A stretch of 32,000 bases of DNA from Acaryochloris marina S15 (GCF_018336915.1 NZ_CP064923.1:5790001-5822000), one strand, 5' to 3'. Positions 11,227 through 26,699 are shown, numbered from the stretch's first letter. Numbers and translations are program-made. Notes: generated by a model from the letters alone, not told the origin.

Positions 11227-11530
11227 TTTTCTGCTGTGCAGATCTTTTATTGTCAAAACAGTAAGGTCATTGAAATCAATTGGATTTGCATAACGCTCCA
11301 AGTCTGACCTCATGGCTTGTGAGTTGACATCTTTCTCAAATCTGGGGAGTGCTCCTCCTATTTGTTGAGTTCTCCAAAATAGCTTTGACACGTACCGCAG
11401 GCATTTCTTGCCTTGCGGCCGGTGGATCGTGCTGTTTGTGCAGTTCATCTGTTGATCTTGCTTCCCCTGTTGACGATGGGCAATAGCCCGAGTTACGACC
11501 ACATGCAAACAATTTGTCTAGAAAAAATCT

Positions 11531-11542: not shown

Positions 11543-13927
11543 ATGCCTAATTTCAATTCACTCAATGATGGCGATCTAGAAAATGGTCCTGTTGTGCTAG
11601 ATGAATTCCGCGAATCTTTGCGCGTCCGCTCGGGTCAAAACTTACAAACGGGCGATCAAAATAGCGTGGTGACGGAAGGCGTCCTCAACACAGTTGTAGT
11701 AGAAGGCAATGCTGCGATTGAGAGCAATGACACGGCTGTGGAAGCCAATGGTTTAGCCAGCATCATCTTTAACCAGGGCACCATTGCTGGAGGTGTGAAT
11801 GGTGTCAGTGCGACGGGCAATCGTTTTCGCTTGTTTAACCGGGGCACTATTGCGTCTGACAGCCGAGCGGTGGATATCAGCGATGGGGATGGCAGCATTG
11901 TCATCAATTCTGGTTCGATTATTGGCACAGACGATCAGCGAAACGGGACTTTATATGTCGATGGCACCGTCGATAACTTCCGGCTTCTCAATCAACGCTC
12001 GGGCGTTATTGATGCGGGAGATGGCAATCTTGGAGATGCCGTTTCGGTACAGGTGGGTGCTACAGATGATCCCACCAGCGAGGGTATCAATATTGTCAAC
12101 AATGGTTTATTCCAAGGCCGGGGCGATGGCCCAGAGGTTTTTGCCAACGGTGCCCGAGTCGCCCCTAATGGGTCAAGCGGCCTTCGATTCTTTAATGGCT
12201 CAGGTCAGCCCGAGACTTCCGTGAGTGGATCTGTGATTAATAACGGTACGATTACCGCCGAAGTGAATGTGGGCTTTCTCGGCGGCTTGGTCGTAGAAGA
12301 TGGCGTGGGTTTTGATGGGCAGATTGTCAATGGCCGTAATGGTCTGATTGAAGGGCCTCGGAATGGTCTTTATATTGGTAATGCAGACCATGATCTAACG
12401 ATTCGCAACTTTGGTCGCATCGAGTCTGGGAGTCGGGCGGTCAATATCGACGGCACAGGTGTAGATTTACTGAACTATGGCACCATCACGGGTACCGGCA
12501 ATCAGCGTAATGGCACTGTTTACTCAGATGCCACAGCAGATAACTACCGAATTTTTAATGGCCGTTCGGGCGTCATTGATGCAGGAGTTGGTAACCAAGG
12601 AGCAGGAATTGCCCTGCAGACGGGTGATATTGCAGGAGATGTTGTTAATTCGACGTTAACTAACTTTGGCACGATACAGGGTCGAGGTCAGGCTGCTGCT
12701 AACTTAGGTTTAGCAGGTGATGGTCTACGAATTTTTTCTGGTGTCGATGGTGGAGGAACCGTCTATCGTGGCAACATTTTTAACCAGGGTCGAATTCTTT
12801 CCGAAAGTTTGCAAGGTCCGACTGCTGCAGTTCGATTTTCCAATGGCCTGGCCTATGAAGGGACATTGACCAACGCCAGAGGAGGACTCATTGATGGTGC
12901 TCAAAATGGCTTGTATTTTGGCGATGCTGACCATGATGCAACGGTGATTAATCGTGGCACCATTCAAAGCGGTAGCCGAGCTGTCAACATTGATGGTTCT
13001 GGTGTTGATTTGCGTAACTTTGGTCAAATTTTGGGGACAGATGATCAACGTAACGGTACAGTTTATGCCGACTCAACTGCAGAAGACTACTCCATTTTCA
13101 ATGGACGTTCAGGGTTGATTGACGCCGGTGAAGGCAATAACGGTGCTGGTGTTTCCTTGCAGACAGGCGATGAAGATGGTGATATCGTCGAAGCCTCACT
13201 CCGCAATGACGGTTTAATCCGAGGCCGTGGAGATGGCGTAGGTAATCAGGCTGGCGACGGTGTTCGTCTGTTTACGAGTGTGGCTGGATCCACAACCTTT
13301 GCGGGGGATTTGGATAATCGAGGTCAAATCTTTGGTACGGATGATGGCATCGATATTCAAACCGGGGTAACGCTAGATGGCGACATTAATAACTCAGGTT
13401 TGCTTGCCGCAGATGAGATTGGGGTCAATATTAGTGGAGCGCTTAATGGTGAATTGAATAACCAAGGCACCATTACCGGGAGAGCTGCTGCCATTGATGC
13501 GAGTGCAGCTACTGCTGGAATCACCGTCAATAACCAAGGTGAGATCAATGGTGATGTGACCCTAAGTAACTTTGACGATATCTTTAACGGTGCAGAAGGC
13601 ACGGTTAATGGCGTCATTAATGGAGGTGGAGGCAACGACCTTCTGATTGGGGGGCGTCAAAACGATATCTTTGTAGGAGGTGACGGTCAGGATACGTTCG
13701 TATTTGCAGCAAATTCAGGGGTTGATATCGTCACAGATTTTGCAACTAGCGAGATTGATGTTCTTGATTTCAGCGCTGTCTTTAGTGATATCAACGAAAT
13801 TGTGGGGGTTGGCGGCGCTGCGACTCAGGTGGGTACTGCCACCTTGATTGATTTGGGAAATAACAATGAAGTAGTGCTATTGAATGTCAGTGTAAGTGAC
13901 TTAACAGTGGATAACTTTATCGTTTAA
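11543..13927 (+). CDS. Secreted repeat protein, probable T1SS substrate (beta-helix-like N/G/D-rich repeats plus C-terminal RTX nonapeptides)
   Basis: 794 aa with no N-terminal signal peptide. There are three ~181-190-aa tandem repeats (SRAV(D/N)I.. at aa 107, 297, 478). GGGGNDLLIGGRQNDIFVGGDGQDTFVF (aa 694-721) is a hemolysin-type Ca-binding repeat block, followed by a ~70-aa non-repeat C-terminus. The gene lies next to an ABC/HlyD pair. Confidence 0.85.
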   Translation: MPNFNSLNDGDLENGPVVLDEFRESLRVRSGQNLQTGDQNSVVTEGVLNTVVVEGNAAIESNDTAVEANGLASIIFNQGTIAGGVNGVSATGNRFRLFNRGTIASDSRAVDISDGDGSIVINSGSIIGTDDQRNGTLYVDGTVDNFRLLNQRSGVIDAGDGNLGDAVSVQVGATDDPTSEGINIVNNGLFQGRGDGPEVFANGARVAPNGSSGLRFFNGSGQPETSVSGSVINNGTITAEVNVGFLGGLVVEDGVGFDGQIVNGRNGLIEGPRNGLYIGNADHDLTIRNFGRIESGSRAVNIDGTGVDLLNYGTITGTGNQRNGTVYSDATADNYRIFNGRSGVIDAGVGNQGAGIALQTGDIAGDVVNSTLTNFGTIQGRGQAAANLGLAGDGLRIFSGVDGGGTVYRGNIFNQGRILSESLQGPTAAVRFSNGLAYEGTLTNARGGLIDGAQNGLYFGDADHDATVINRGTIQSGSRAVNIDGSGVDLRNFGQILGTDDQRNGTVYADSTAEDYSIFNGRSGLIDAGEGNNGAGVSLQTGDEDGDIVEASLRNDGLIRGRGDGVGNQAGDGVRLFTSVAGSTTFAGDLDNRGQIFGTDDGIDIQTGVTLDGDINNSGLLAADEIGVNISGALNGELNNQGTITGRAAAIDASAATAGITVNNQGEINGDVTLSNFDDIFNGAEGTVNGVINGGGGNDLLIGGRQNDIFVGGDGQDTFVFAANSGVDIVTDFATSEIDVLDFSAVFSDINEIVGVGGAATQVGTATLIDLGNNNEVVLLNVSVSDLTVDNFIV
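11861..13340 (+). repeat. Three in-frame tandem repeats (~543-570 bp each) inside the 794-aa gene
   Basis: The protein segments starting at aa 107, 297 and 478 align by eye, for example GSRAVNIDG(T/S)GVDL.N(Y/F)G.I.GT..QRNGTVY.D.TA(D/E).Y.IFNGRSG(V/L)IDAG.GN.GAG(I/V).LQTGD. Confidence 0.8.
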
Positions 13928-13934
13928 GCCAGAT

Positions 13935-13962
13935 AGCGGCAGGCTCCAAGCCTGCCGCTTTG
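13935..13962 (+). terminator. Rho-independent terminator candidate
   Basis: A perfect 10-bp stem, AGCGGCAGGC (13935-13944) / GCCTGCCGCT (13950-13959), with a 5-nt loop, starts 8 nt after the stop codon. It is followed only by a short T run (TTTGG). Confidence 0.65.
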
Positions 13963-14751
13963 GTCATCCGTGGTTTCGTCAGATTGCCATCGGTTTGGGC
14001 AGGGTTGCTCTGATGGGTTCCCATTCAACAGTAAGGCTATGACTCAACCCATTTGCTAATAAGTCGGTCGCTGCTAATTGGATAGCTGTAGCAAAGCAAA
14101 ATTCCCAGCCCTATTCCGCTATATCTACTCGCCGAGCTTGCCTAGCTAATGAGCTAACGATTCTGCCTTTATGGTCTGGGAAGTGGATGCATAAATATTC
14201 ACTCACTAACTGATAAATAGTTGGCTGCCTCAACCACTGGTATCAAGCAACATTAGTTCTGATTAGAAAAGGTAGTTTATGACTGAGTGTAAATCTTGGA
14301 TAACTAATATCACTTAAATTATTTAGCCAAGATAGTAATAATTCTAGAAAGAATAACGAGAAGGCTGTGGTTTCTTTCAGTTGCTTATTATGAAGAGTCA
14401 GGAATATAGCTATAGCAGTCTAAAACAGATGGTCATTGATAATACAATTTTACGTAGATTGCAAAACATAAAAGAATTATTTGCCTTGGAAAAATAATTT
14501 TACTAGATGTTAACGTTCCTAGTTGGTGCTGATCTATCAGTTGTAAATATATGGGTTAAGATTCCGAGGGATGATGACACAGCGAGATCCTATTGCTGAC
14601 TGAAACGACGCCATGAGAGTTACATCTTCCTAGTCAGCAGGGTATGGTAACAATACTTTCCTTTCACCCTTACCTTCATCTGTTTTATTCATGTTGTCTC
14701 TAAATTGATCTTTAGACTTGAATAACCCTCTCTATTAAGAGTATTTTTGAT

Positions 14752-15504
14752 ATGATCTCTGCCCTACCGATTGTGGATAAAACTGTTCAACCCTCTGATT
14801 TAATTCCTTTGCTTGGGCAATATCAGCTGCTTCCTCAGTTGCTGAAAGAACTGATTATTGACCAAGCTATTCAAGACGTTCAATTAGGCCCAGAAGAAGT
14901 TGTACAAGCAGTAGAGCAGTTCTATCGTCAGCATCAAATCGGTGAGGAAGCTAGACGTGAGGCTTGGCTAAAGCATTATCGGATGACGCCTCAGCAGTTG
15001 GCTGCGCAAGCCCAACGGCAGTTGAAACTGCATAAATTTAAACTCCAAACCTGGAATAACCAGGTAGAGTCTGATTTTCTCCAGCAAAAAGGGCAGTTTG
15101 ATCAATATGTTTATTCTTTGATCCGAGTGGCCAGTGCCGAAGTGGCTCAAGAATTATATTTCCGACTGCAGGCCGGTGAACAAGCGTTTGCAGATTTGGC
15201 AACCAAATATTCTCAAGGTCCTGAAGCACAAACAGGTGGATTGATTGGTCCTGTTACTGCAGCCAATCTACATCCCACGTTAGTGCAAATTCTGACGAGT
15301 GCTCAACCTGGGCAAGTACGCCCTCCTATTCGCTTAGGTGAATGGTTTGTGATTGTCAGTTTGCAAAAATTGATCTCGGCTCAACTAGATGCCCCGCTGC
15401 GACAACAATTGCTGGAGCAGCGTTTTAATGAGTGGCTCCAATTGCAGCTTAAATCGGCTGCAATTTCTGATGACTCTATTGCTGTTTCGGCGCGAACACC
15501 ATGA
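14752..15504 (+). CDS. Parvulin-type (PpiC/SurA-like) peptidyl-prolyl isomerase family protein, probably non-catalytic
   Basis: 250 aa. The C-terminal half matches the parvulin fold pattern (FADLATKYSQGPEAQTGGLIGPV...LHPTLVQIL...GQVRPPIRLGEWFVIV). No signal peptide is visible. Its stop overlaps the ABC start (ATGA at 15501-15504). Confidence 0.75.
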   Translation: MISALPIVDKTVQPSDLIPLLGQYQLLPQLLKELIIDQAIQDVQLGPEEVVQAVEQFYRQHQIGEEARREAWLKHYRMTPQQLAAQAQRQLKLHKFKLQTWNNQVESDFLQQKGQFDQYVYSLIRVASAEVAQELYFRLQAGEQAFADLATKYSQGPEAQTGGLIGPVTAANLHPTLVQILTSAQPGQVRPPIRLGEWFVIVSLQKLISAQLDAPLRQQLLEQRFNEWLQLQLKSAAISDDSIAVSARTP

Positions 15505-18458
15505 CTTCAGCCATCCTTGCTCTGGAATCCTTTCTTAAGGATCTACCCGGTTTTAACCAGCTTTCAGAAGCGGTTTTATCTTCGGTGGCGAAAGAATTTC
15601 AACCATTGCGCTATCCCATGGGCCGCCCCCTTGTGTCTAATCGGGCCATGCCTCAAGACTTTACCCTGATCTATCAAGGGCAGGTGCGCCTATTAGGTTA
15701 CGATCCTCGCACCGATACTCCAGTGACCCTCAGTCTGTTGGGACCGGGTGCTGCAGTCGGGTGGATTAGCCTGGTGCGCCAAATTCCCTGTGAGACGGCC
15801 ATTGCTTCGGTGGAAACAGTGGGATTAAAGTTGCCTGCGGCGACTTTTTTAGAGCTGCTGGAACATGAATCGAGCCTGGCTCAAGTGTATGAGCAGCAGG
15901 CTAATATTCTCGAAGCGTTTGATGTTCTGGGCCAACAGTTATTGATCCGGGCGGATGGCTCGACTGACCTGAAATTTTTGGCAGAAAGAGCTTTACCAGC
16001 AAGTCTGATTCAAAAGTGCCCCATCCGAGATATCTCTATTGATCAATTACAGCCCAATTTGGAATGGTTTGTGAGTGGAGGGTCCATTCCTGACTTGGAA
16101 ATTGGTCAACCCTTGGAAACCTGTCTAGAGCAGCTCAATGGCACGGTCTCTCGTTCAGAAACACTCCGGTTGATTGGGTTATCACCGATCAAGGCCCAGC
16201 AGCTATCGATTGAGCCAGTGGCTTCTATTCCCCAAGCAGATACTTGGGAGGATATCCCCGAAGCACCAACTTTGCTGCCTGCGGTCGATGATGCCCCGGT
16301 GAAACATGGCAAATATCCCTTTAAGTCTGGTCGGGGCCCTATTGATGCCCCGCTGGCTTGTTTCCAAATGCTGGCGCTGTATCTCAATTTGCCGTTTCGC
16401 AAGGATGTTCTGCGGCGCATTCTCAAAAACCAAGCGGAGCGCAATGGTCCAGGAATTTCCCTGCCGGTGTATGGTGCGATCTCAGAGTCGATGGGATTAC
16501 GAGCCCAGTTAGTGGAAACCCCTGCTTCTGCGTTTTCTCGTCTTCCTGCTCCTGCCTTAATCAATTGGCAAGATCGTATTGCACTGGTGTATGAAACCAG
16601 TGCTAAAGAAATCGTATTTGCGGTGCCTGAGCAAACCTTGCTGCGTCAGCACCCCGATGAATTTTTGGAAGCCTTTGATGACAAGGTGCAAGTGCTGCTG
16701 CTAGAGCGCACCCATGATACGCCCCAAAGTCGATTTAACCTGAGCTGGTTTTGGCCTTCGATTAAGAAGCACCGTAAGGTTTTGATTGAGGTGCTGATTG
16801 CCTCTTTCTTTGTGCAGTTATTTGGTTTAGCGAATCCGCTTATTACCCAGGTCATTATTGATAAAGTTTTATCCCAAGGGGCTTTGGGGACCCTGAATGT
16901 CCTCGGTATGTTGTTGGTTGGTGTGGCTGTTTTTGAAGCCTTGCTCACCAGTTTTCGGACCTATCTGTTTGTGGATACCACGAATCGGATTGATATGTCC
17001 CTAGGAGCGGAGGTGATCGATCACTTAGTCCGATTACCCCTACGCTATTTTGATAAGCGGCCTGTGGGTGAACTCGCCACCCGAGTGAATGAACTCGAAA
17101 ACATCCGTAAGTTTTTGACGGGAACGGCTTTGACGGTGGTGTTGGATGCGGTTTTCTCCGTGGTGTACATCGTCGTCATGGTGTTCTACAGCTGGCTGCT
17201 GACGATTATTGCCCTGGGTACGGTACCGTTATTTGCCTTGCTAACCTTTATTTTTGCGCCGATTATTCGCCGCCTTGCCCGGACTAAGGCTGAGGAGAAC
17301 GCCAAGACCCAGTCGTACTTGGTGGAGGTGGTATCGGGAATACAAACGGTCAAAGCTCAAAATATTGAGCTGAAATCCCGATGGCAATGGCAAGATCGCT
17401 ATGCCCGGTATGTCAGCGCTGGATTTAAGGCGGTTGTGGCATCTACAACAGCTGGCTCCATGAGTGGCTTTTTGAATAAGTTATCTAGTCTGCTCTTGCT
17501 GTGGGTGGGAGCCTATCTATTTATTGAAGGGCAGTTGACCGTGGGTGAATTGATTGCCTTTCGTATTATTGCTGGTTATACCACTGGCCCCTTGCTCCGG
17601 TTAGTGCAGCTATGGCAGAACTTCCAAGAAACAGCACTGTCCCTAGAACGATTGAGCGATATTCTCGACTATCCCCAAGAAGTGACTGAAGCAGATCGAG
17701 ATTTAATCCCCATGCCGCTAATGGAGGGGGCCGTCAAGTTTGAGGATCTGTCTTTCCGGTTTAAGGATAGTGGACCGATGCAGCTTCAGCAGGTGTCTCT
17801 CGAAGTGCCAGCTCAAACCTTTGTGGGAATTGTCGGTCAGAGTGGTTCCGGTAAGAGTACCTTGATGAAGCTGCTGATGCGACTTTATAACGCGAATGGA
17901 GGACGAATCGTAGTCGACCAGTACGACATTAGCAAGGTCGAGCTATACTCTCTCCGGCGTCAAATTGGCATGGTGCTGCAGGATAGTTTGCTGTTTGATG
18001 GCACGGTGCAAGAGAATATTGCTCTTTCGGCACCAGATGCAACGGCGGAAGAAATTGTGGAGGCCGCCAGAATAGCCTATGCCCATGATTTCATTATGGA
18101 GCTGCCCCAAGGCTATAACTCCCGAGTGGGTGAGCGGGGCTCGTCTTTGTCTGGGGGACAACGGCAACGGATTGCGATCGCAAGAATGGTACTGCAAAAT
18201 CCCCAGCTCATTATTCTGGATGAAGCCACGAGTGCACTAGATTACAACGCTGAACGGCAAGTCTGTCTTAATCTGGCAGAAGCCTTTGGTGATCGCACCG
18301 TTTTCTTTGTTACCCACCGCCTCAAAACTTTGGAATCAGCAGATATGATTCTGATGATGGATCAGGGCAATCTAGTAGAACAAGGCACCCATGCAGAATT
18401 GATGCAGCAAAAAGGTCGATATTACTGGCTTTACCAGCAACAGGAGACTCAATCATGA
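15501..18458 (+). CDS. T1SS ABC transporter with N-terminal cNMP-binding-like domain and C39-like (apparently inactive) peptidase domain
   Basis: 985 aa. It has a CAP-effector-like fold at aa ~8-125, a C39-like domain at aa ~270-405 and a 6-helix TMD. The NBD carries Walker A GQSGSGKST, signature LSGGQRQRIAIAR, Walker B IILDEATSALD and the H-loop VTHRL. Confidence 0.95.
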   Translation: MTSAILALESFLKDLPGFNQLSEAVLSSVAKEFQPLRYPMGRPLVSNRAMPQDFTLIYQGQVRLLGYDPRTDTPVTLSLLGPGAAVGWISLVRQIPCETAIASVETVGLKLPAATFLELLEHESSLAQVYEQQANILEAFDVLGQQLLIRADGSTDLKFLAERALPASLIQKCPIRDISIDQLQPNLEWFVSGGSIPDLEIGQPLETCLEQLNGTVSRSETLRLIGLSPIKAQQLSIEPVASIPQADTWEDIPEAPTLLPAVDDAPVKHGKYPFKSGRGPIDAPLACFQMLALYLNLPFRKDVLRRILKNQAERNGPGISLPVYGAISESMGLRAQLVETPASAFSRLPAPALINWQDRIALVYETSAKEIVFAVPEQTLLRQHPDEFLEAFDDKVQVLLLERTHDTPQSRFNLSWFWPSIKKHRKVLIEVLIASFFVQLFGLANPLITQVIIDKVLSQGALGTLNVLGMLLVGVAVFEALLTSFRTYLFVDTTNRIDMSLGAEVIDHLVRLPLRYFDKRPVGELATRVNELENIRKFLTGTALTVVLDAVFSVVYIVVMVFYSWLLTIIALGTVPLFALLTFIFAPIIRRLARTKAEENAKTQSYLVEVVSGIQTVKAQNIELKSRWQWQDRYARYVSAGFKAVVASTTAGSMSGFLNKLSSLLLLWVGAYLFIEGQLTVGELIAFRIIAGYTTGPLLRLVQLWQNFQETALSLERLSDILDYPQEVTEADRDLIPMPLMEGAVKFEDLSFRFKDSGPMQLQQVSLEVPAQTFVGIVGQSGSGKSTLMKLLMRLYNANGGRIVVDQYDISKVELYSLRRQIGMVLQDSLLFDGTVQENIALSAPDATAEEIVEAARIAYAHDFIMELPQGYNSRVGERGSSLSGGQRQRIAIARMVLQNPQLIILDEATSALDYNAERQVCLNLAEAFGDRTVFFVTHRLKTLESADMILMMDQGNLVEQGTHAELMQQKGRYYWLYQQQETQS

Positions 18459-20026
18459 CCATTACTCAAGATTTCGCTGGCGACCCCCAAAGACCTTCGA
18501 CTGAATCAGAGCAAAATGTATTACCCCTAACAAAGGGCCGTCCCACAAAAGAGAAGCCGTTTGATCGGCCAGTCATTCTCCAGCAATCTCCGGTTTGGTC
18601 TAGAGCGATCATTTGGGGGATTGTGGGCGCTGCTTCGGCAGCATTGGCATGGGCCTGTTTGTTTCAAATTGAAGAAGCGATTCCTGCAACTGGCCAGCTA
18701 GAACCCCAGGGAGCAGTCAAACCCATCCAATCTCCGGTTACAGGTGTTGTGACAGAGATCAAAGTTGACGAAGGACAGTTGGTTAAAGCCGGCGATCCAT
18801 TGATTTTTCTGAACGCAAAAGGCACGAACTCTGAAATCAAGTCCCTAGAAGATCAACTTGACCAACTCCGTGAAGTCAACAAATATTACCGCCAGCAGCT
18901 AGAAGGAAATAGTGTTGCCCCGCTTCCAGATGTGATTAATGTCGAGTTGATTAATGCGACGCGTGATCGGCGGGCCCTCGTCGCTGAGAATAAACTATTC
19001 AGAGCCCAACTGAATGGAGCGAAAAACGCTAAAGCCTTTTCACCGGAAGAGCAACAGCGCTTGAAGTCTGGGTTGTTGCAAGGCTCGTCTAGTGTAGCGG
19101 CTGCCCAAGCCCGAGTGATGCAAGGTGAAAAACAGCTGCGCCAAATTGAAGTGCAGCTAGAGCAGACCAAAATTCAATTAGCTAGTGCTCAACAGACCTT
19201 GTCTCTGAATCAAGAGATTGTTAAAGATATTGAAGAGGCCCACAAGAAAGGGGCAATTGCCCGGGTTCAATTTAAACGTCAAGAAGATGAAGTGCAGTCT
19301 GGTCAAGCAGAAGTCTCTCGTCTGCAGCAAGAGCAAATTCGCTTGTTACGTCAAATGGAGCAAATTGGTCAAGAGAAGGTACAGTCTCAAGCACAAGCTC
19401 TCAATACAGTAGCCACCAACCAGCGAGATTTGTTGGATCGGATTGCCGCAAATGAAAAACAGATCACGGAAATCGATAGCCAGCTCACCAAAGCGGTCGT
19501 TGATAATAAAAGAGCAATTGCAGATTTAAACAGTCGTTTGACACAAGCCCAACTAACTCGCGAGTATCAAGTGTTGAAAGCACCTGTGGATGGGTTGGTG
19601 TTTGATCTCCAGCCTAGTGGACCTGGCTTTGTGGTGAATGCGAGTGAGCCGATTTTGAAAATTGTGCCGTCTGATAGTCTAAAGGCCAAAGTCTACATCA
19701 CCAATAAAGATATTGGCTTTATTCAAACAGGAATGCCTGTCGATGTACGAGTCGATTCGTTTAACTTTAGTGAATTTGGCGATATTGAAGGAACCATTGA
19801 GTCCATTGGCTCTGATGCTTTACCGCCAACGGAGGTGCGCCAGTTTTACAGCTTTCCAGCCATGGTGCAGTTAGATTCACAAACATTAGAGGCTAAGGGG
19901 CGTAATCTAGATTTGCAGTCTGGGATGTCTGTCAGTGTCAATATCAAAGTACGCAAGCGACCTATCATTAGTTTGATTACCGATCGCTTTTCCAAGGAAG
20001 CCGATGGCATTAAGCATTTACGCTAA
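18455..20026 (+). CDS. HlyD-family periplasmic adaptor (membrane fusion protein) of the T1SS
   Basis: 523 aa with a single N-terminal TM (AIIWGIVGAASAALAWACLF), a lipoyl-like segment, a long Q/E-rich coiled coil and a C-terminal beta-barrel segment. There is an ATGA overlap with the ABC gene at 18455-18458. Confidence 0.9.
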   Translation: MTITQDFAGDPQRPSTESEQNVLPLTKGRPTKEKPFDRPVILQQSPVWSRAIIWGIVGAASAALAWACLFQIEEAIPATGQLEPQGAVKPIQSPVTGVVTEIKVDEGQLVKAGDPLIFLNAKGTNSEIKSLEDQLDQLREVNKYYRQQLEGNSVAPLPDVINVELINATRDRRALVAENKLFRAQLNGAKNAKAFSPEEQQRLKSGLLQGSSSVAAAQARVMQGEKQLRQIEVQLEQTKIQLASAQQTLSLNQEIVKDIEEAHKKGAIARVQFKRQEDEVQSGQAEVSRLQQEQIRLLRQMEQIGQEKVQSQAQALNTVATNQRDLLDRIAANEKQITEIDSQLTKAVVDNKRAIADLNSRLTQAQLTREYQVLKAPVDGLVFDLQPSGPGFVVNASEPILKIVPSDSLKAKVYITNKDIGFIQTGMPVDVRVDSFNFSEFGDIEGTIESIGSDALPPTEVRQFYSFPAMVQLDSQTLEAKGRNLDLQSGMSVSVNIKVRKRPIISLITDRFSKEADGIKHLR

Positions 20027-20079
20027 GTCGTAAAAGCCCTGACTTAGTGGCATGTGCTTTCAGCTCAGCAGCTTGGTTC

Positions 20080-20109
20080 AAAAAAGCCCTGACGAAATGT
20101 CGTCAGGGC
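20080..20109 (-). terminator. Rho-independent terminator for the small minus-strand ORFs
   Basis: The stem is GCCCTGACG (20086-20094) / CGTCAGGGC (20101-20109) with a 6-nt loop. On the minus strand it is followed by TTTTTT (complement of 20080-20085). There is no U-tract in the plus orientation. Confidence 0.65.
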
Positions 20110-20174
20110 AGCATCATCAGGTATGTGACATGAGCGCTGGATCATTCGCCTAGAGATGTGCTATTTCTTCGGAA

Positions 20175-20303
20175 TCACTCTGACTCGTTCATACTTTCTA
20201 CATCTAAATCGAGCAGCATAAAACTTTTAATCTCTGTATCAGATAAAAAGAGAGACTGCTCAATAGGGGAGATAGTTGTGCTTAAAGTGTTGTGGAGAGT
20301 CAT
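20175..20303 (-). CDS. Small acidic protein, paralog A (42 aa, C-terminally shorter)
   Basis: My translation is MTLHNTLSTTISPIEQSLFLSDTEIKSFMLLDLDVESMNESE. It is paralogous to 20385..20585. The ORF is below the track threshold and is supported by the synonymous-rich substitution pattern between the two copies. Confidence 0.4.
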   Translation of the reverse strand: MTLHNTLSTTISPIEQSLFLSDTEIKSFMLLDLDVESMNESE

Positions 20304-20384
20304 GGTTGTAAGCGTCTGGGGGAGTGCTGTCTGAAAGGCAAAGGGATCAATATTGGATATGTGGTGTAAGGCTAGGTCATTCGC

Positions 20385-20585
20385 CTAGAGATGTGCCAAC
20401 TCTCCTTCAATTCCAAGCCCTTCATTCATACTTTCTACATCTAAATCGATCAGCATGAAACTTTTAATTTCTGCGTCAGATAAAAAGAGAGACTGCTCAG
20501 TATAGGAGGCAGTTGTGCTTAAGGTGTTGAGAAGAGTCATGGTTTGAATGTTTTGGAGAAGTGCTATCTGAGAGGTCTGAGTCAT
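20385..20585 (-). CDS. Small acidic protein, paralog B (66 aa; alternative start ATG 20540 gives 51 aa)
   Basis: This is the ORF-track entry. Its core EQSLFLSDAEIKSFMLIDLDVESMNE is shared with paralog A. Over 40 aligned codons there are 7 synonymous and 6 non-synonymous differences. Confidence 0.5.
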   Translation of the reverse strand: MTQTSQIALLQNIQTMTLLNTLSTTASYTEQSLFLSDAEIKSFMLIDLDVESMNEGLGIEGELAHL

Positions 20586-20773
20586 TGGGGTAGTCGGGGT
20601 TGGTTGCTTATAGATATAGACTAACCATTACAGTAAGCTTGAGAGTCAAGAGAAATTTGTATAAGAATAAATTATACTTGGCGTTTCTTCCATATACCTG
20701 ATGGCTTAAAAGCCATATATAGAAAGACTTTACGTATGACTAATGTTTTTTTGTGGATATACATTTTGCAGAC

Positions 20774-20807
20774 AAAAAAACTGCTCTGGCAGCACCAGAG
20801 CAGTTTT
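20774..20807 (-). terminator. Rho-independent terminator of the giant RTX gene (bidirectional-looking)
   Basis: The stem is CTGCTCTGG (20781-20789) / CCAGAGCAG (20795-20803) with a 5-nt loop. An A7 run precedes it and T4 follows on the plus strand, so the minus-strand RNA reads hairpin plus U7. It lies 65 nt downstream of the stop at 20872. Confidence 0.8.
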
Positions 20808-20871
20808 CGCTTTAAAGTCTAAGGAGTTTTACGGGGTCTTGGCCGCTTTACGACTTCAGAATTAGGAGCCC

Positions 20872-23800
20872 CTAGATATAGATGAAAGAGCTGTCTTCCA
20901 AGCTGAAAACAGAGTCACTCATAACATTAGCAATCAGCTCATCAGCACCACCATTAGAATCCAAATAGATTCCGGTGCCGCCCATGCCAGGTGCTGAAGC
21001 GCCTAAGACATAGTCGGATGCGGAGCCACTGAGTTGGATCATATCCTCACCTCCATTGAAGTCGGTAATGACAGCAAAGTCATTCAGACCTGCAGATGTA
21101 TCATCGCCGTCGTTGTAGTAGGCAACATCACCACCGAGGACGAAATAGTCTGCACCTTCATCTCCAGTCAGATAGTCAATGGAACCACTGCCTTTGAGGG
21201 TGTCGCTGTTGGCACCGACTAAGACATCAGCACCACTCCCACCCAGAAGGGTGTCATTACCTTCGTGGCCGATTAAGGTGTCGTTGTTAGCACCGCCTTC
21301 CAGCATATCGTTGCCAGCGCCAGCATAGAGGGCATCGGTCCCGTCACCACCTAGCAGTTGGTTATTTCCAGTGCTGCCAAACAGAACATCATTGCCAACG
21401 CCACCATCTAATAAGTCATTGCCCGTATCGGCATAAAGGGAATCATTTCCTTCTCCTCCTAGAAGTGTGTCAATACCAGACCCACCGAAGAGCTGGTCAT
21501 TGCCACTGCCCCCTTCGAGCACATCATTACCGCTACCACCTTTGAGGTGGTCTGCACCCGCACCCGCACTAAGGATATCGTCATTACTGCCGCCGTCTAG
21601 GGTGTCTTTACCGTCGCCACTGGTGAGGGTGTCATTGCCTGATCCACCTTTGAGGTTGTTGTTGCCACCCGTCGTGGTCAAGACATCATCCCCGGCACCT
21701 CCATCTAAACGGTCACTGCCGCTGCCACTAGAGAGGGTGTCATTTCCACCCTGGCCATAGAGCTTCACTTTGGCACCATTAGTGGATGTAATTTGGTCAT
21801 TACCACTGTTGGCAGAAAGGGTTTCGATACCAACGGCATCGATATTCATGTTCAGGTCAGAGGTGCTTTGAAAGTAAGCCGTATCTGTACCTGTACCACC
21901 TTCAACAACGGTATCGTCAGCATCGAAGTAGAGTTTATCGTTGCCCGCGCCCCCGATGAGTTGGTCTGCACCTGCATCCCCTTTCAGGATGTCGTTTCCA
22001 GACCCGGCATCTAAGAGGTCATCGCCACTGCCGCCAAGCAGGCTGTCGTTTCCACTATCAGCGCTGAGGGTATCGTTTCCAGACCCACCGTCTAAGGTGT
22101 CTTTGCCCCCGGCGGTAGTCAAGCTATCGTTGCCGTCGCCACCGAATAGGGCATTGTTACCACCGCTAGAAGATAAGACATCGTTACCACTGCCACCGTC
22201 TAAACGATCGTTGCCGCTGCTGCTAGTGAGGGTGTCATCGCCAGCCAGACCATACATTTTAATGTTGGTGCCATTGCTAGAGGTGAACTGGTCGTTCCCA
22301 GCATTACCGTGAATTTCTTCAATGCTGACATCATCAATATTGAGAGTTAGACCATCGCTACTTTGGAGTTTGGCAACATCTGTACCGTCGCCACCGTCAA
22401 AGGTATCGTCACCATCGAAGTTAATGGTATCGTTACCTGCGCCGCCCAATAAAGTATCGGCCCCAGCATTGCCTGAGAGAACATCGTTGCCCTCTTGACC
22501 TTCTAGGAGGTCATCTCCCGTACCACCCGAGAGAATGTCATTGCCTGCCCCAGCAAGAATGGTGTCATTACCGATTCCCCCATCGAGATTGTCATGGCCG
22601 GTGCCTCCAGTGATGCTGTCATCTCCAGCTTCACCATGAATTTCAACATTCTCGGTCCCGGAATTGGTAAAGACATCATCGCCGCCAGAACCGTAGGCCA
22701 ATTCAATTTGGCTAGCGCCTAGATCTAGGGTGACGGGCTGATTGCCTTGAGCACGAGCGATGTCGTAACCGTCGCCACCATCGACTACGGTATCATCCGC
22801 ATCGAACAGCAATGTGTCAGAGCCGTCACCCCCATACAGTTCATCTGCTCCGTCGCCACCGACCAACATGTCATTCTCAGTGCCACCTTCGAGGATGTCA
22901 TCCCCAGCATTACCTTCAAGGTAGTCATGGCCTGCCCCACCGGAAATCAGGTCGTTGCCTTCACCTGCGATGGCAGTATCTTCACCCGCTCCACCAGCTA
23001 GGGTATCGTCACCAGTGCCGCCTTCTAGATAGTCATTAGCTGAGCCACCGGATAACTGGTCATCACCACCGTTACCGAACAAAGCAACCGTCGTAGAAGC
23101 TGGAGTACCAGCACCATTCGTATTAGTGAAAATATCATCCCCACTATTGCCGTGGGCTTCATTAAAGCTGTTAGCACCTGCATCAAAGACGACACCTTCA
23201 GCCGATTCCACCATGGCGATGTCATAGCCTTCACCACCCAGGATTTGGGTGTCAGCAGCATCAATGAACACAACGTCATTGCCATCGCCACCTAAGAGAG
23301 TATCTGCGCCTGCACCGCCACTAATGGCATCATTGCCGCTGCCCCCATCGATAAAATCATCTCCAGCATTACCGGAGAGCCATTCGTCATTACCTGCATT
23401 ACCCGAAATGACGTCAGCGCCTTCGCCCCCTTCAATGACATCTTGGCCGTCGCCACCACTGAGTTGGTCAGCGCCTTCACCGCCGCTCAAGTAGTCGTTG
23501 CCTGCATCACCTGAGAGGACATCATCTCCGGCATCACCCATAAGGACGTCTTTTTCTTCTCCACCGAAGAGGGTATCGTTGCCAGCGCCCCCTTCCAGAA
23601 TGTCTAAGCCAGCTTCTCCTTTCAGGAGATCGGCATTATCGCCGCCACCCAAGGAGTCGTTGCCAGCACCGCCGTATAGCGTATCTAGTCCAGCATCGCC
23701 TTGGAGAATGTCATTGCCAGCGTCACCGGTCAGTAGGTCATCACCGGCACCGCCGAGGACTGTATCATCGGCTTCACCCCCAGAAACGGTATCATTTCCT

Positions 23801-25569
23801 TCGCCCCCAGAAACGATGTCGCTGCCGAGACCGCCTTCTACGAGGTCATTGCCAGCACCACCGTCGACCCAAAAGTCATCTCCTTCGCCCCCTTTAAGAA
23901 TGTCATCGCCAGCATCGCCTTTGAGGACATCGTTTCCGGCATCTCCTTCTAAGACATCATTGCCGAGACCACCGCTGAGAGTGTCACTGCCGAGACCACC
24001 ACTGAGCTGGTCCTGGCCTTCGCCCCCATCGACGATGTCATTGCCGGCATCACCTGTGAGAACGTCATCGCCTGCATTACCGAGGACGGTGTCATTGCCG
24101 TCGCCACCGCTAACAGTATCTTGGTCTGCCCCACCCGCAACGACATCATTGCCGAGGCCGCCTTCAACGAGGTCATTGCCTGCACCACCGTCAACCCAGT
24201 AGTCGTTGCCTTCTCCAGCATTCAGGTAATCATTACCCGCATCGCCCATTAGGACATCATTACCCGTGTTACCGAGGAGGATATCTGCACCTTCCCCACC
24301 GGACATCACATCTTCGCCAGCCCCGCCATCGATTAAATCAGCGCCTTCGCCACCGGAGAGCCAACCATCGTTACCCGCGCCACCGTCTATGGTGTCATTG
24401 CCCTGGCCACCTTCGATGGCATCCATACCCTCATCTCCAGAGAGCAGGTCATCGCCTAATCCACCACTAACAAAGTCATGACCAGCACCACCGCTGATGG
24501 TGTCTTGTCCCGCATCTCCGTAAAGAACGTCTTGGTCACCTTCGCCAGTAATAAGGTCGTCGCCTTCGCCACCGTGAATATTGTCATCGCCTTGACCCCC
24601 GGATAAGGTATCTGTACCCGTGCCTCCGTCCATATGGTCAACTTGTTCGCCGCCGAACAGGGCATCGTCGCCTGCTCCCCCGGTGAGGGTGTCATCATTG
24701 GCACCGCCATAGAGGGTATCGTTGCCTTCACCCCCATCCATGATGTCGTTACCTTCCTCGCCGTAGAGGGCATCGTTGCCTTCGCCGCCAGACATCCAAT
24801 AGTCGTCACCCGCACCCCCTATCAGCTCATCGTTGCCGGCTTCTCCCATGAGGATGTCGTTGCCGGATTGACCTAGGATTTTGTCATCTCCCAGACCGCC
24901 CTTAAGGGTGTCGGCACCTGCACCGCCGTCTAGTAAGTCAGCACCAGTACCGCCGTCGATATAATCTGTACCAGAACCCGCTAATAAAGTATCTTGGCCT
25001 TCATTGCCAAGGAGGTTGTCATTGCCTGTGCCACCGGTGACAAAATCATTGCCTTCGCCGCCACTGAGAATATCGTTGCCTGCGTCTCCATGCAGGGTGT
25101 CGTCGCCAGCTTCACCGGCTAGCCAGTAGTCATCTCCTTGACCACCAATGATCATGTCTGCGCCTTGATCGCCCATGATGGCGTCTTTACCTAAGCCACC
25201 GATGAGGACATCATTACCAACGCCACCTAGTAAGAGGTCGTCGTTTTGGGTGCCGCTAATAGCATTGGGATCAGCGAAACCCGCACCACTCTCATCTACT
25301 GGACCGCTATAGATATAGTTGCCATTGGCGTCTTGTTGCCAGTTTTGGGTACCGCCTTCATCACCATGCATCCAGTCGTTGCCTTGGCTGCCAGAGAGCG
25401 TATCGTTGCCCGTGCCACCTTTAACGACATCATCACCTTCGTTACCCGAAAGCCACATATCATCGCCTTCGCCACCGATAATGGTATCGTCGCCTTCATT
25501 GCCGACGACGACGTCATCTGCTTCTGAGCCAAATAGTGCTTCGCTGTTTTCAGTACCAAATACTTGCAT
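20872..25569 (-). CDS. Giant RTX / hemolysin-type calcium-binding repeat protein, probable T1SS substrate
   Basis: 1565 aa, starting directly with repeats and no signal peptide. GGxGxDxLx nonapeptides run along almost the whole length, well over 100 units by eye. Four ~75-aa spacer modules interrupt them, and a ~110-aa non-repeat C-terminus (..DFAVITDFNGGEDMIQLSG..SVFSLEDSSFIYI) follows. Confidence 0.95.
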   Translation of the reverse strand: MQVFGTENSEALFGSEADDVVVGNEGDDTIIGGEGDDMWLSGNEGDDVVKGGTGNDTLSGSQGNDWMHGDEGGTQNWQQDANGNYIYSGPVDESGAGFADPNAISGTQNDDLLLGGVGNDVLIGGLGKDAIMGDQGADMIIGGQGDDYWLAGEAGDDTLHGDAGNDILSGGEGNDFVTGGTGNDNLLGNEGQDTLLAGSGTDYIDGGTGADLLDGGAGADTLKGGLGDDKILGQSGNDILMGEAGNDELIGGAGDDYWMSGGEGNDALYGEEGNDIMDGGEGNDTLYGGANDDTLTGGAGDDALFGGEQVDHMDGGTGTDTLSGGQGDDNIHGGEGDDLITGEGDQDVLYGDAGQDTISGGAGHDFVSGGLGDDLLSGDEGMDAIEGGQGNDTIDGGAGNDGWLSGGEGADLIDGGAGEDVMSGGEGADILLGNTGNDVLMGDAGNDYLNAGEGNDYWVDGGAGNDLVEGGLGNDVVAGGADQDTVSGGDGNDTVLGNAGDDVLTGDAGNDIVDGGEGQDQLSGGLGSDTLSGGLGNDVLEGDAGNDVLKGDAGDDILKGGEGDDFWVDGGAGNDLVEGGLGSDIVSGGEGNDTVSGGEADDTVLGGAGDDLLTGDAGNDILQGDAGLDTLYGGAGNDSLGGGDNADLLKGEAGLDILEGGAGNDTLFGGEEKDVLMGDAGDDVLSGDAGNDYLSGGEGADQLSGGDGQDVIEGGEGADVISGNAGNDEWLSGNAGDDFIDGGSGNDAISGGAGADTLLGGDGNDVVFIDAADTQILGGEGYDIAMVESAEGVVFDAGANSFNEAHGNSGDDIFTNTNGAGTPASTTVALFGNGGDDQLSGGSANDYLEGGTGDDTLAGGAGEDTAIAGEGNDLISGGAGHDYLEGNAGDDILEGGTENDMLVGGDGADELYGGDGSDTLLFDADDTVVDGGDGYDIARAQGNQPVTLDLGASQIELAYGSGGDDVFTNSGTENVEIHGEAGDDSITGGTGHDNLDGGIGNDTILAGAGNDILSGGTGDDLLEGQEGNDVLSGNAGADTLLGGAGNDTINFDGDDTFDGGDGTDVAKLQSSDGLTLNIDDVSIEEIHGNAGNDQFTSSNGTNIKMYGLAGDDTLTSSSGNDRLDGGSGNDVLSSSGGNNALFGGDGNDSLTTAGGKDTLDGGSGNDTLSADSGNDSLLGGSGDDLLDAGSGNDILKGDAGADQLIGGAGNDKLYFDADDTVVEGGTGTDTAYFQSTSDLNMNIDAVGIETLSANSGNDQITSTNGAKVKLYGQGGNDTLSSGSGSDRLDGGAGDDVLTTTGGNNNLKGGSGNDTLTSGDGKDTLDGGSNDDILSAGAGADHLKGGSGNDVLEGGSGNDQLFGGSGIDTLLGGEGNDSLYADTGNDLLDGGVGNDVLFGSTGNNQLLGGDGTDALYAGAGNDMLEGGANNDTLIGHEGNDTLLGGSGADVLVGANSDTLKGSGSIDYLTGDEGADYFVLGGDVAYYNDGDDTSAGLNDFAVITDFNGGEDMIQLSGSASDYVLGASAPGMGGTGIYLDSNGGADELIANVMSDSVFSLEDSSFIYI
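21445..22428 (-). repeat. Internal ~492-bp (164-aa) super-repeat, two copies, within the RTX gene
   Basis: Residues 1048-1211 and 1212-1375 align by eye: (I/L)(N/Y)FD(G/A)DDT..GG.GTD.A..QS(S/T)(D/S).L.(L/M)NID.(V)(S/G)IE....N(A/S)GNDQ(F/I)TS(S/T)NG...K(M/L)YG..G(D/N)DTL(T/S)S.SG(N/S)DRLDGG.G(N/D)DVL...GGNN.. Confidence 0.75.
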
Positions 25570-25573
25570 GGTT

Positions 25574-25580
25574 TCCCCCT
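25574..25580 (-). promoter_or_regulatory. Shine-Dalgarno-like AGGGGGA for the RTX gene
   Basis: The minus strand reads ..CCAGGGGGAAACC ATG, with a purine-rich block 4-10 nt upstream of the ATG at 25569. Confidence 0.5.
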
Positions 25581-25742
25581 GGTTTGTAATTCTTCTTAAC
25601 GCTAATTGTTCAAGTTAACTGGAGTGTCAATAGATCAAGCTATAAAAAAAACTTATGTAATTGACACGAATAGATAGGACAGTTTGTGGACTCCATGAAT
25701 AGGTGAAGTCCGGTAGATCAGAAACGATGGTTGAGATATGGA

Positions 25743-26699
25743 TTAAGGAACAGGTTGTGGATAGCTAACGGTTGAGTTATCAACCACGATGGGTTCATCC
25801 ACAATCACGTCTTCAAGATTGGCATCGATTAAATTGCTGCCAAAGAGGTTAACCCCTCGTAAATCTGCTCCCTGCAAATTGGCTCCCATGAGAATGGCTT
25901 CGCTGAGGTTGGCACCTCGCAGGTCGGCTTCACATAGACAGGCACCACCCAAGTTGCTGCCAATTAAACTGGTTTCGGTGAGGGTGGCTTCACTTAAATC
26001 TGTGCCAATGAGAACTGCATGGGATAAGTCAGCTTGTTTGAGATAGGCCCCGATCATATCGGCTCCGCTGAGATAGGCTTCTCGAAATGTGCATTGCTCT
26101 AGGGCGGCTTCATTCAAACTCGCTAGCATCAGCTCAGCCCGATTGAAATTGGCATGGCTGAGTAAGGTGCCGCTTAATTTAGCACCAATCAACTTCAGGC
26201 CCGCAAAATGGCGTTCGCCTGCGGCATATTTTGCCAGCATGCCTCTGCTGATATCTTCGTCTCCCTCAAGGACTGTCAGACTTTGGTCTTCAATCGTTTG
26301 CAGCAGTTTTAAGAGAGATTGGGATTGGGGGCCGACGGTGCTAAGCTGCTGTAATTGTTCAAACCGGCGTCCGAGCTGCTGTCGGGTTTGGTTGAGTTCT
26401 GTGAGTTGTTGATCTAAGTCTTCGATATGGCAGGCCACCATCTGCTGCATGCGCTGTTGAGCATCTTTGGACTGTTCGCCGATGTCCAGCAGTTCTTTAA
26501 TTTCATGGAGGGAAAGGCCAAAGTTTTGGGCACTGCGAATAATTTGTAATCTCTCTTGGGCTGCTATGGTGTAGAGTCGATAACCGGATCGATTCCGTTC
26601 AGGTTGTTTGAGTAGCCCGAGTTGCTCATAATAGCGAATCGCTTGGGGAGAGACACCAAATTTACTGGCTAATTGGCCAATGAGCAGTCCAGTCGTCAT
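25743..26699 (-). CDS. MerR-family HTH regulator fused to a C-terminal pentapeptide-repeat domain
   Basis: From ATG 26699 the sequence is MTTGLLIGQLASKFGVSPQAIRYYEQLGLL..RSGYRLY..LQIIRSAQNFGLSLHEIKELL, the MerR HTH plus wing. A Q-rich coiled coil follows, then ~27 consecutive A(D/N)Lxx-type pentapeptides (aa 186-322 of the long ORF). The longest ORF starts at 26768. Confidence 0.85.
   Translation of the reverse strand: MTTGLLIGQLASKFGVSPQAIRYYEQLGLLKQPERNRSGYRLYTIAAQERLQIIRSAQNFGLSLHEIKELLDIGEQSKDAQQRMQQMVACHIEDLDQQLTELNQTRQQLGRRFEQLQQLSTVGPQSQSLLKLLQTIEDQSLTVLEGDEDISRGMLAKYAAGERHFAGLKLIGAKLSGTLLSHANFNRAELMLASLNEAALEQCTFREAYLSGADMIGAYLKQADLSHAVLIGTDLSEATLTETSLIGSNLGGACLCEADLRGANLSEAILMGANLQGADLRGVNLFGSNLIDANLEDVIVDEPIVVDNSTVSYPQPVP

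Follow-up and report, generated by a model that had tools for sequence, protein, structure and literature searches.

A pan-cyanobacterial type I secretion operon that opens with a catalytically dead parvulin-like protein, and its lineage-specific neighbours in Acaryochloris marina S15

The DNA considered here is a 32,000-nucleotide (nt) stretch from Acaryochloris marina S15 (GCF_018336915.1, NZ_CP064923.1:5790001-5822000), referred to as the window, whose positions are counted from its first letter. At its centre lie three co-directional genes, here called the trio, which encode a parvulin-like protein of the peptidyl-prolyl isomerase (PPIase) type, an ATP-binding cassette (ABC) exporter and HlyD, and which are accompanied by two large repeats-in-toxin (RTX) genes, here cargo 1 and cargo 2, two small acidic open reading frames (ORFs), a MerR-type regulator gene and one further short ORF. 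An original prediction made from this DNA had described the region from 11543 to 25569 as a self-contained type I secretion system (T1SS) island, that is, an accessory region. The analysis corrects this call to a core operon with accessory flanks: the trio is a core operon found across Cyanobacteria, and only the flanking genes are lineage-specific. A pan-cyanobacterial T1SS operon with lineage-specific substrate modules beside it, and a MerR-type module downstream, is the best overall explanation of the locus and one that we hold with moderate confidence. While the machine at the centre of the locus is a known one, the conserved dead-parvulin partner, the module of MerR-pentapeptide regulator, RTX protein and small protein, and the mer-operator-like promoters are new variations, to which functions can be given provisionally. 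The genes of the locus are as follows, the first seven from the ORF map of the window:

11543-13927, plus strand: cargo 1, 794 amino acids (aa)
14752-15504, plus strand: parvulin-like protein (PPIase), 250 aa
15501-18458, plus strand: ABC exporter, 985 aa
18455-20026, plus strand: HlyD, 523 aa
20175-20303, minus strand: small ORF B, 42 aa
20385-20585, minus strand: small ORF A, 66 aa
20872-25569, minus strand: cargo 2, 1565 aa
25743-26699, minus strand: MerR-pentapeptide (MerR-PRP) gene, 318 aa, with its ATG at 26699
26857-27174, minus strand: orf105, 105 aa, without family match, 86% in locus L008

The ORF positions given in the original prediction match this map exactly, and its domain calls hold in Pfam and NCBIfam: Rotamase for the parvulin-like protein, cNMP_binding, Peptidase_C39, ABC_membrane and ABC_tran for the exporter, HlyD_3 for HlyD and HemolysinCabind for cargo 2. 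According to the coordinates, the PPIase and ABC genes as well as the ABC and HlyD genes overlap by 4 nt. The other large ORFs of the window encode a nucleotidyl transferase, a polysaccharide-synthesis protein, SpoIIM, a hydrolase, a methyltransferase, the MerR-pentapeptide protein, an FHA-GAF-cyclase and a Ser/Thr kinase. All ORFs of at least 300 aa in the 32-kb window are thereby accounted for, and a TolC-like factor is absent from it, as had been predicted; the TolC-like channel would be supplied from elsewhere in the genome.

The ABC protein is composed of an N-terminal cyclic nucleotide monophosphate (cNMP)-binding domain, a C39-like domain, a six-helix transmembrane domain and a nucleotide-binding domain. 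It reaches 734.1 bits against TIGR01846, the HlyB subfamily (cutoff 725.55), and its residues 281-981 align to residues 7-705 of E. coli HlyB (7sgr) with an E-value of 7e-165, the C39-like domain included. Peptidase_C39 (PF03412) is matched with 23.4 bits, and the segment IDAPLAC stands opposite IDYGLYA of HlyB, with alanine at the Cys/Tyr position. Since the catalytic cysteine is replaced by alanine, the C39-like domain cannot cleave peptides; by analogy with HlyB, it would tether unfolded RTX substrates. The N-terminal cNMP-type domain is probably a regulatory input to the exporter. HlyD matches HlyD_3 (PF13437, E-value 2.6e-25), HlyD_D23 and Biotin_lipoyl_2 and scores 207.7 bits against TIGR01843, just under the cutoff of 208.65; judged by these matches, it is the membrane-fusion (periplasmic adaptor) protein. 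The TIGR01846 match, the HlyB alignment and the HlyD domains thus bear out the earlier assignment of the trio to an HlyB/HlyD-type T1SS with cNMP-binding and C39-like domains, and by its domain content the trio is the inner-membrane part of a hemolysin-type T1SS. An identity of the ABC protein as a peptidase-containing ABC transporter (PCAT), an exporter of peptides with double-glycine (GG) leaders, was rejected: the cysteine is changed to alanine, the scores for TIGR01193 and TIGR03796 are far under their cutoffs, and the small ORFs lack the GG.

Three known systems can be compared with this exporter. With HlyB-HlyD-TolC/HlyA of E. coli it shares a C39-like domain without catalytic cysteine, an HlyD adaptor, an outer-membrane factor encoded elsewhere and, putatively, RTX-repeat substrates with an uncleaved C-terminal signal. 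It differs from the E. coli system by the extra N-terminal cNMP-binding-type domain and by the PrsA-like pseudo-parvulin at the start of the operon; an HlyC acyltransferase is missing, and, unlike in hlyCABD, the substrate genes are separate and independently regulated, one of them being convergent. HetC of Nostoc PCC 7120 has the same order of cNMP-binding, C39 and ABC domains and provides a precedent for nucleotide control, as its cNMP-type domain, without which HetC does not function, binds ppGpp (PMC10986499). HetC, however, is a PCAT whose Cys peptidase is active and whose substrate is presumed to be a peptide, whereas the window protein has alanine and belongs to the HlyB subfamily, and the gene neighbourhoods differ. 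In Synechocystis PCC 6803, the HlyB and HlyD analogues Sll1180 and Sll1181 together with the TolC protein Slr1270 export the surface-layer (S-layer) RTX protein Sll1951, according to the account of Agarwal 2018 given in PMC11594277. As far as that account goes, a cyanobacterial HlyB/HlyD pair serves there to export a giant RTX surface protein; cargo 2 is likewise an all-RTX protein of more than 1500 aa. Neither a parvulin partner nor a small acidic protein is reported for the Synechocystis system in the searchable literature. In Synechocystis, the substrate gene is not known to be adjacent to the exporter genes.

The first gene of the operon encodes a protein with a Rotamase domain (PF00639, 45.8 bits), but none of the three catalytic residues of a parvulin is left. 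In the phmmer alignment to SurA, the catalytic aspartate corresponds to Gly156 and the C-terminal histidine to Phe199; the first catalytic histidine, mapped by motif inspection (SHILV versus SLIRV, here YSLIR), corresponds to Leu123. Orthologue alignments, comprising 71 proteins from the loci and 38 database homologues, show that Gly156 is invariant and Leu123 nearly so, and that position 199/200 is always hydrophobic. An active parvulin PPIase of the PpiC/Par10 or Pin1 kind was therefore rejected: the fold is present, but all three catalytic residues are replaced family-wide. The AlphaFold model (mean predicted local distance difference test score, pLDDT, 84.8) places helices 14-116 and 214-242 around the parvulin domain, and the best Foldseek matches of the model are PrsA foldases (6vj6, E-value 1e-9, TMq 0.54), with SurA also found; a weak match to TIGR02933 (NifM) was obtained as well. 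In its predicted fold, the protein thus resembles PrsA of Bacillus, SurA of E. coli and NifM, in which N- and C-terminal helices form a chaperone module with the parvulin domain inserted. The first parvulin domain of SurA is likewise catalytically inactive. Unlike PrsA and SurA, however, the window protein has lost all catalytic residues in its only parvulin domain, and it is operon-linked to a T1SS and not to the Sec or BAM pathways. It also differs from them in its N-terminus: inspection of the protein and of the family consensus revealed neither a signal peptide nor a lipobox, and the parvulin-like protein is therefore considered to be cytoplasmic, in agreement with the original prediction. 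On the grounds of fold and residue losses, it is probably a chaperone rather than an isomerase, and it might act as a cytoplasmic holdase or targeting chaperone for long, unfolded, calcium-free substrates prior to export. In the usual description, to our knowledge, a T1SS consists of three components and does without a helper of its own in the cytoplasm, and no description of a dedicated parvulin-like T1SS partner was found in the searchable literature, although absence there is not proof of novelty. Since a dead PrsA/SurA-like protein opens this operon in most of the cyanobacteria that were examined, a fourth, conserved component of the T1SS is indicated.

The distribution of the trio was determined by scanning a genome collection with the ABC protein; the 80 best loci, among which Synechocystis does not appear, were searched with the window proteins, and the spacings were measured. 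In 70 of the 73 loci whose upstream DNA reaches far enough, a co-directional homologue of the PPIase precedes the ABC gene by 0-538 nt, and HlyD follows the ABC gene in 76 of the 77 loci with downstream DNA. These loci belong to Gloeobacterales, Pseudanabaena, Gloeomargaritaceae, Thermosynechococcaceae, Leptolyngbyaceae (Leptolyngbya), Coleofasciculus, Chroococcidiopsis, Crocosphaera, Scytonema, Calothrix and Nostoc, and the ABC orthologues are 57-67% identical across these groups. The tblastn matches begin at residue 1 of the ABC query in most loci; the cNMP-type domain therefore belongs to the conserved protein. Some loci weigh against such a uniform picture: the PPIase gene is not upstream in L066 and L074 and is divergent in L035, and in Nostoc sp. 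CENA543 a pseudo-parvulin homologue (L094 9001-9726, 50% identity) stands alone, away from ABC and HlyD genes, which means that in some Nostocales the operon linkage is broken or a paralogue exists.

Three further loci deserve mention. A 3.6-kb contig binned as 'Candidatus Obscuribacterales' (L093) carries a PPIase-ABC pair with the identical 4-nt overlap; either this contig is mis-binned or the pair may be older than Cyanobacteria proper. A cyanobacterial-type ABC gene on a 2.9-kb contig binned as Acetobacteraceae (L045) is probably due to a binning error. The plasmid pREB1 of A. marina MBIC11017, the nearest named relative of the window, harbours a paralogue of the trio (L009 4534-14541; ABC 93%, PPIase 82% and HlyD 79% identical) that is immediately preceded by a different RTX gene of 1365 aa; genes for a CHAT-TPR protein, a carbonic anhydrase and a TonB-dependent receptor are among its neighbours. 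The ABC protein of the window recurs unchanged in Acaryochloris GCA_021497025.1 (CP071717) and in several read-archive assemblies.

The original prediction had read both large flanking proteins as RTX proteins with GGxGxD repeats and a non-repeat C-terminus. For cargo 2, this is clear: the protein scores 814.8 bits against PF00353, contains 45 HemolysinCabind stretches and 70 GGxGxD motifs and is almost wholly an RTX beta-roll, which matches those of CyaA and of T1SS-secreted lipase and protease. It may be a protein of the surface layer or of a matrix. Strains differ in the length of cargo 2, with 1565 aa here versus 1842-1861 aa in MBIC11017, L008 and L087, presumably through gain or loss of RTX repeat blocks. 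Cargo 1 is a borderline case. It is a beta-strand-repeat protein rich in Gly, Asn and Asp and free of Cys, with one short RTX block (aa ~686-722) that resembles cargo 2 and contains only two strict GGxGxD motifs (aa 694 and 712); the whole protein has no Pfam match, and the C-terminal 136 aa alone barely pass PF00353 (23.7 versus 23 bits). These 136 aa match the C-termini of enzymes that are secreted by T1SS (serralysins, PueAB and SMc04171-type proteins), and a weak match to the R-module of AlgE4 was found. The N-terminal 680 residues of cargo 1 (11543-13582) place it in a large family, annotated 'beta strand repeat-containing / calcium-binding protein', which occurs in marine cyanobacteria and Alphaproteobacteria. 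RTX repeats or CHRD domains are the usual fusion partners in this family, while an autotransporter barrel (PF03797) and PEP-CTERM were each seen once. This variety of export and anchoring fusions marks the N-terminal domain as a modular extracellular passenger.

Direct reading of the N-termini confirmed that both cargo proteins lack a signal peptide, and with their RTX blocks and a shared C-terminal tail they look like the C-terminal-signal T1SS substrates that they had been taken for. Both end in DF...D.(I/L).(L/F)S followed, after ~50 residues, by (D/S)xxFI(V/Y): the tail reads ...DIVTDF..EIDVLDFS...TVDNFIV in cargo 1 and ...VITDF..GEDMIQLS...EDSSFIYI in cargo 2. Similar ends, among them SASNFTIL, SASDFTIT, SAANFRIL and AADFTVVAI, occur in trio-adjacent RTX genes of L019, L029, L031, L034, L039 and L078. 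RTX ORFs were found within 10 kb of the trio in 14 of the 80 loci (1.4 Mb in total), which represent several unrelated lineages and include the pREB1 paralogue; it follows that substrate genes recurrently settle beside the trio, though most loci have none. Taken together, cargo 1 and cargo 2 are putative substrates of this particular exporter.

Within Acaryochloris, the flanks vary independently of the trio. Cargo 1 is present in L007, L010, L087 and L088. Cargo 2, the small gene and MerR-PRP occur together in L007, L008 and L087, and in L088-L091 as far as the shorter contigs reach; all three are absent from L009, L010 and L011. In L011, an Acaryochloris metagenome-assembled genome, the genes for the FHA-GAF-cyclase and the kinase follow directly after HlyD, and the segment of about 20027-27500, which comprises the small gene, cargo 2, MerR-PRP and orf105, is therefore an insertion/deletion block. 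orf105 travels with the other genes of the block and is missing with it from L011. For the adjacency of cargo genes and trio, on whose conservation the original prediction was to stand or fall, the outcome is thus mixed: it is kept in the A. marina clade (L007, L008, L087-L091) and absent in other Acaryochloris and other genera. As the small gene co-occurs with cargo 2 and MerR-PRP in all full loci, the small ORFs belong with these two genes and not with the trio. Two lineage-specific substrate modules would accordingly have settled beside the core operon, cargo 1 upstream and the four-gene block downstream. The FHA-GAF-adenylate/guanylate cyclase gene (minus strand) and the Ser/Thr kinase-DUF4189 gene (plus strand) are divergent neighbours at 27571-31116. 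A functional tie between the cyclase and the cNMP-binding domain of the ABC protein was considered and is conceivable; it was set aside for want of conserved synteny, since outside Acaryochloris the cyclase is not seen beside the trio.

Near-twin promoters appear to drive the expression of cargo 2 and the small gene. The regulatory features of the locus are:

13935-13959, plus strand: terminator-like hairpin of cargo 1, a 10-bp GC-rich stem with a short T tract, read from the sequence
14620-14648, plus strand: candidate trio promoter, TTACAT-N17-TATGGT, a unique match, tentatively assigned
20086-20109, minus strand: intrinsic terminator of the small-ORF transcript, a 10-bp stem with 7 GC pairs, then a T run
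20618-20649, minus strand: predicted MerR-type promoter P_small, TTGACT-20 bp-TAGTCT, ending 32 nt before the start codon
20659-20677, no strand assigned: perfect palindrome GTATAA-N7-TTATAC, 10 nt upstream of the P_small -35 element, conserved in 8 of 8 strains
~20774-20803, minus strand: terminator of cargo 2, CTGCTCTGG-TGCTG-CCAGAGCAG then T7, conserved between strains
25599-25630, minus strand: predicted MerR-type promoter/operator P_cargo2, TTGACA-20 bp-TAGCGT, ending 29 nt before the start codon

Terminator-like hairpins are thus found at all three places for which terminators had been claimed, and a CCCTGAC...GTCAGGG-T(n) hairpin equivalent to that at 20086-20109 lies 3' of the small gene in every strain. 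Of the 824-bp spacer between cargo 1 and the trio, only ~14616-14751 is conserved in all chromosomal Acaryochloris copies (alignment of 8 loci). P_small and P_cargo2 are identical at 21 of 32 positions, and both are conserved in other strains; the two strands of the window contain no further TTGAC-N21-TAnnnT site. Strains hardly differ in the 90 nt upstream of the small gene, although the synonymous sites of the ORF are saturated. Within P_cargo2, the segment TCCAGT-TA-ACTTGA agrees with the mer-operator dyad TCCAGT-N2-ACTGGA in 11 of 12 positions. When the motif shared by the two promoters was used in degenerate form, 4 contigs were found among 241 million metagenome records, all of high GC content and all with TTGACC TTCCAGTGAACTGGAACCTC TAGCGT and a perfect TTCCAGT/ACTGGAA dyad. 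The motif lies there between divergent merR and merB genes (three near-identical contigs) or between merR and a gene for an HMA-domain protein; these are therefore two independent instances, both of them genuine mer-type operators. The MerR proteins of these contigs are 40% identical to the MerR domain of the window protein.

A candidate activator is encoded immediately upstream of cargo 2. MerR-PRP contains MerR_1, MerR and MerR-DNA-bind domains, and its helix-turn-helix and dimerisation helix are closest to ZntR, MerR, CadR and CueR (E-values of 1e-21 to 1e-24), a subfamily that activates promoters with 19-20-bp spacers. The metal-binding loop of these regulators is replaced by C-terminal HetL-like pentapeptide repeats (1.5e-27) with one Cys. 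We infer that MerR-PRP co-activates cargo 2 and the small gene, which are separate transcription units with their own terminators; joint switching is probable because their near-twin promoters with 20-bp spacers are of the kind that MerR-family activators remodel. Two observations weigh against this assignment: the dyad of P_small keeps no more than 9 of the 12 positions of the mer-type half-sites, and the MerR-PRP gene is co-directional with its presumed target and not divergent as in mer operons. In comparison with MerR, ZntR and CueR systems, the likeness thus lies in the DNA-binding domain and coiled coil, in the 20-bp spacer (19-20 bp in theirs) and in the recurrence of the motif at genuine merR-merB and HMA operators, whereas the regulator differs in its C-terminus, in its orientation and in its presumed targets, an RTX protein and a small acidic protein instead of metal resistance. 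With a promoter of the mer-operator type and the DNA-binding domain of a MerR protein re-used alongside a sensor domain of pentapeptide repeats, the module would be an unusual rewiring of a metal-resistance switch, and the two 32-bp sites offer a concrete handle on the cyanobacterial regulation of large secreted proteins. The palindrome at 20659-20677 is possibly the site of a second regulator; it was rejected as an NtcA site (GTA-N8-TAC), for which the spacing is wrong, and as a CRP site (TGTGA-N6-TCACA), for which the sequence is wrong.

The small ORFs, whose reality the original prediction had assumed, proved to be one orphan gene with a recent, truncated tandem copy. Small ORF A encodes 66 aa with a net charge of about -8, a core of QSLFLSDAEI(N/K)SFMLLDLDV(D/E)SMNE and a variable tail of 2-22 residues in the family. 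A profile-free search of 1.8 billion representatives gave seven matches, six of which are proteins of 58-77 aa; the seventh (P0002, 2961 aa), a low-complexity Thr/Ser/Asn-rich repeat protein, was discarded as a false positive. Every member with retrievable context follows an RTX gene and faces a convergent HlyD gene, on contigs of the Acaryochloris type whose ABC protein is 95-98% identical, and a hidden Markov model of the family detected no copy in the other cyanobacterial loci. The gene is real, since its frame survives in-frame indels in 9 copies and the ratio of non-synonymous to synonymous substitution (dN/dS) lies at 0.11-0.43 in the 31 pairs that allowed its computation, in many of which dS exceeds 1. 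ORFs A and B are a 237-nt tandem duplication (84% identity) in the window and close relatives, whereas other strains have a single copy. ORF B lacks the first 15 codons, which encode the N-terminal helix, as well as the promoter, and a 2-nt deletion and a TGA remove its tail; it is possibly decaying, with a dN/dS of 0.32 against ORF A.

The model of ORF A (pLDDT 64.6 overall) comprises a helix of residues 3-28 (pLDDT ~84) and a low-confidence remainder, a predicted profile typical of a disordered protein with a short binding motif. Most likely, the small acidic protein is a partner of the RTX protein or of its regulation. What weighs against assigning it any role is that searches of Pfam, NCBIfam and Pfam at lenient thresholds gave no family and that neither a confident fold nor a recognisable secretion or leader motif was found. 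Two motif candidates were discarded: DLDVDSMNESLE fits positions 1, 3, 5, 9 and 12 of an EF-hand in part of the family, yet position 12 varies, the window copy having Gly there, and the -2/-1 positions in LSDAEI(K/N)SFML are L-I or L-L and not the GG of a double-glycine leader.

Several other explanations of the locus have to be weighed. According to the one closest to the original prediction, the whole 14 kb is a self-contained accessory T1SS island that was acquired in one piece and in which a helper PPIase and small peptides accompany two dedicated cargos. Long intergenic spacers and the gene order are indeed as described there, the second trio with an upstream RTX gene on pREB1 indicates that trio-plus-cargo units can move, and an IS256-family element has inserted in the region in strain CP071717. 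Such an acquisition is nevertheless improbable: the order and orientation of the trio are kept phylum-wide, Gloeobacterales included, its GC content is not anomalous, the upstream hydrolase and methyltransferase and the downstream cyclase and kinase form a conserved chromosomal context in Acaryochloris, and the presence of cargo 1 is not tied to that of the cargo 2 block (L010 has only the former, L011 neither). A descent of the trio along the species tree, with these core neighbours kept in Acaryochloris strains that are free of the cargos, is thereby already apparent in large part. A different objection is that the adjacency is incidental, the trio exporting substrates encoded elsewhere, for instance an S-layer protein, while the flanking proteins use other T1SS or none. 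No RTX gene lies within 10 kb of the trio in 66 of the 80 loci, so its main substrates are normally encoded elsewhere; cyanobacteria usually carry several T1SS, and A. marina MBIC11017 has at least one second trio copy (pREB1), so adjacency does not prove specificity. In addition, each cargo gene forms a transcription unit that ends in a terminator of its own, and cargo 2 also has a regulator to itself. These points count against our substrate assignment, but the 14 loci with a nearby RTX gene exceed, by a rough estimate, the genomic density of RTX genes, they come from unrelated lineages and share the C-terminal motif, and the pREB1 paralogue repeats the layout with the cargo gene upstream. 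We therefore regard an incidental adjacency as unlikely, if worth keeping in mind, and retain the core operon with recurrently settling substrate genes.

For the small ORFs, one alternative is that they encode precursors of the bacteriocin or pheromone type with a conserved leader and a variable core, which would be processed and exported by the adjacent ABC protein in a PCAT- or HetC-like manner. The conserved N-terminal two-thirds followed by the hypervariable tail would suit a precursor, as would the C39-type domain of the ABC protein, and the related exporter HetC, with its cNMP-binding and C39 domains, has been proposed to export a signalling peptide (PMC10986499). Yet this C39-like domain has lost its catalytic Cys, sequence reading found no Gly-Gly or Gly-Ala at the expected distance from LSxxE(I/L), and the small gene tracks cargo 2 and MerR-PRP, not the trio, being absent from L009, L010, L011 and all other cyanobacteria, which leaves the precursor idea with little probability. 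That the small ORFs are no genes at all, the conserved DNA being a promoter, an untranslated region (UTR) or a small RNA with an accidental frame, is hardly credible: the upstream 90 nt are more conserved than the ORF, a Shine-Dalgarno sequence is missing and copy B is truncated, but the dN/dS values and the frame kept in 9 copies speak for a coding gene, and the DNA gave no Rfam match and an unremarkable RNA stability (z = -1.46).

Starting from a genuine small gene that belongs with cargo 2 and MerR-PRP, it is tempting to speculate that its product resembles FlgM or ExsE as a regulator coupled to secretion: in the cytoplasm, it would bind the pentapeptide domain of MerR-PRP or a complex of cargo and chaperone, and it would be removed via the T1SS. 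This is a long shot. If true, transcription of the RTX gene and the small gene from the twin promoters would rise only with an active exporter, and it would be the first such feedback circuit described for type I secretion, beside a pan-cyanobacterial dead PrsA-like chaperone dedicated to T1SS substrates.

A number of minor features complete the description of the locus. The original prediction had described the boundaries as long AT-rich non-coding stretches. The stretches are long, but that of 20027-20871 is not non-coding, as it holds the small ORFs and their promoter, and the spacers are only mildly AT-rich, with a GC content of 0.37-0.43 compared with ~0.47-0.57 in coding DNA, a difference that intergenic DNA commonly shows. 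Against Rfam, the entire window gave no matches at gathering thresholds. The IS256-family element of strain CP071717 (GCA_021497025.1; L006:15282-16616) is 1335 bp long, encodes Transposase_mut in two ORFs and is flanked by a 9-bp duplication; it sits between the cargo 2 terminator and the small-gene promoter (window ~20781) and is absent from the window and from five read-archive assemblies. A 151-aa ORF on the minus strand at 11053-11508 is probably non-coding, because its protein identity to L007 (54%) is below the DNA identity (79%). The 740-bp region 5' of cargo 1 is 79-82% identical among A. marina-type strains, which is high for non-coding DNA, and contains a 29-nt direct repeat with TGAGGCAAAAAGTGAGGC at 10983-11011 and 11202-11230, 219 nt apart (chance expectation 0.02); the region with its repeat may be a regulator site or a long 5' UTR.

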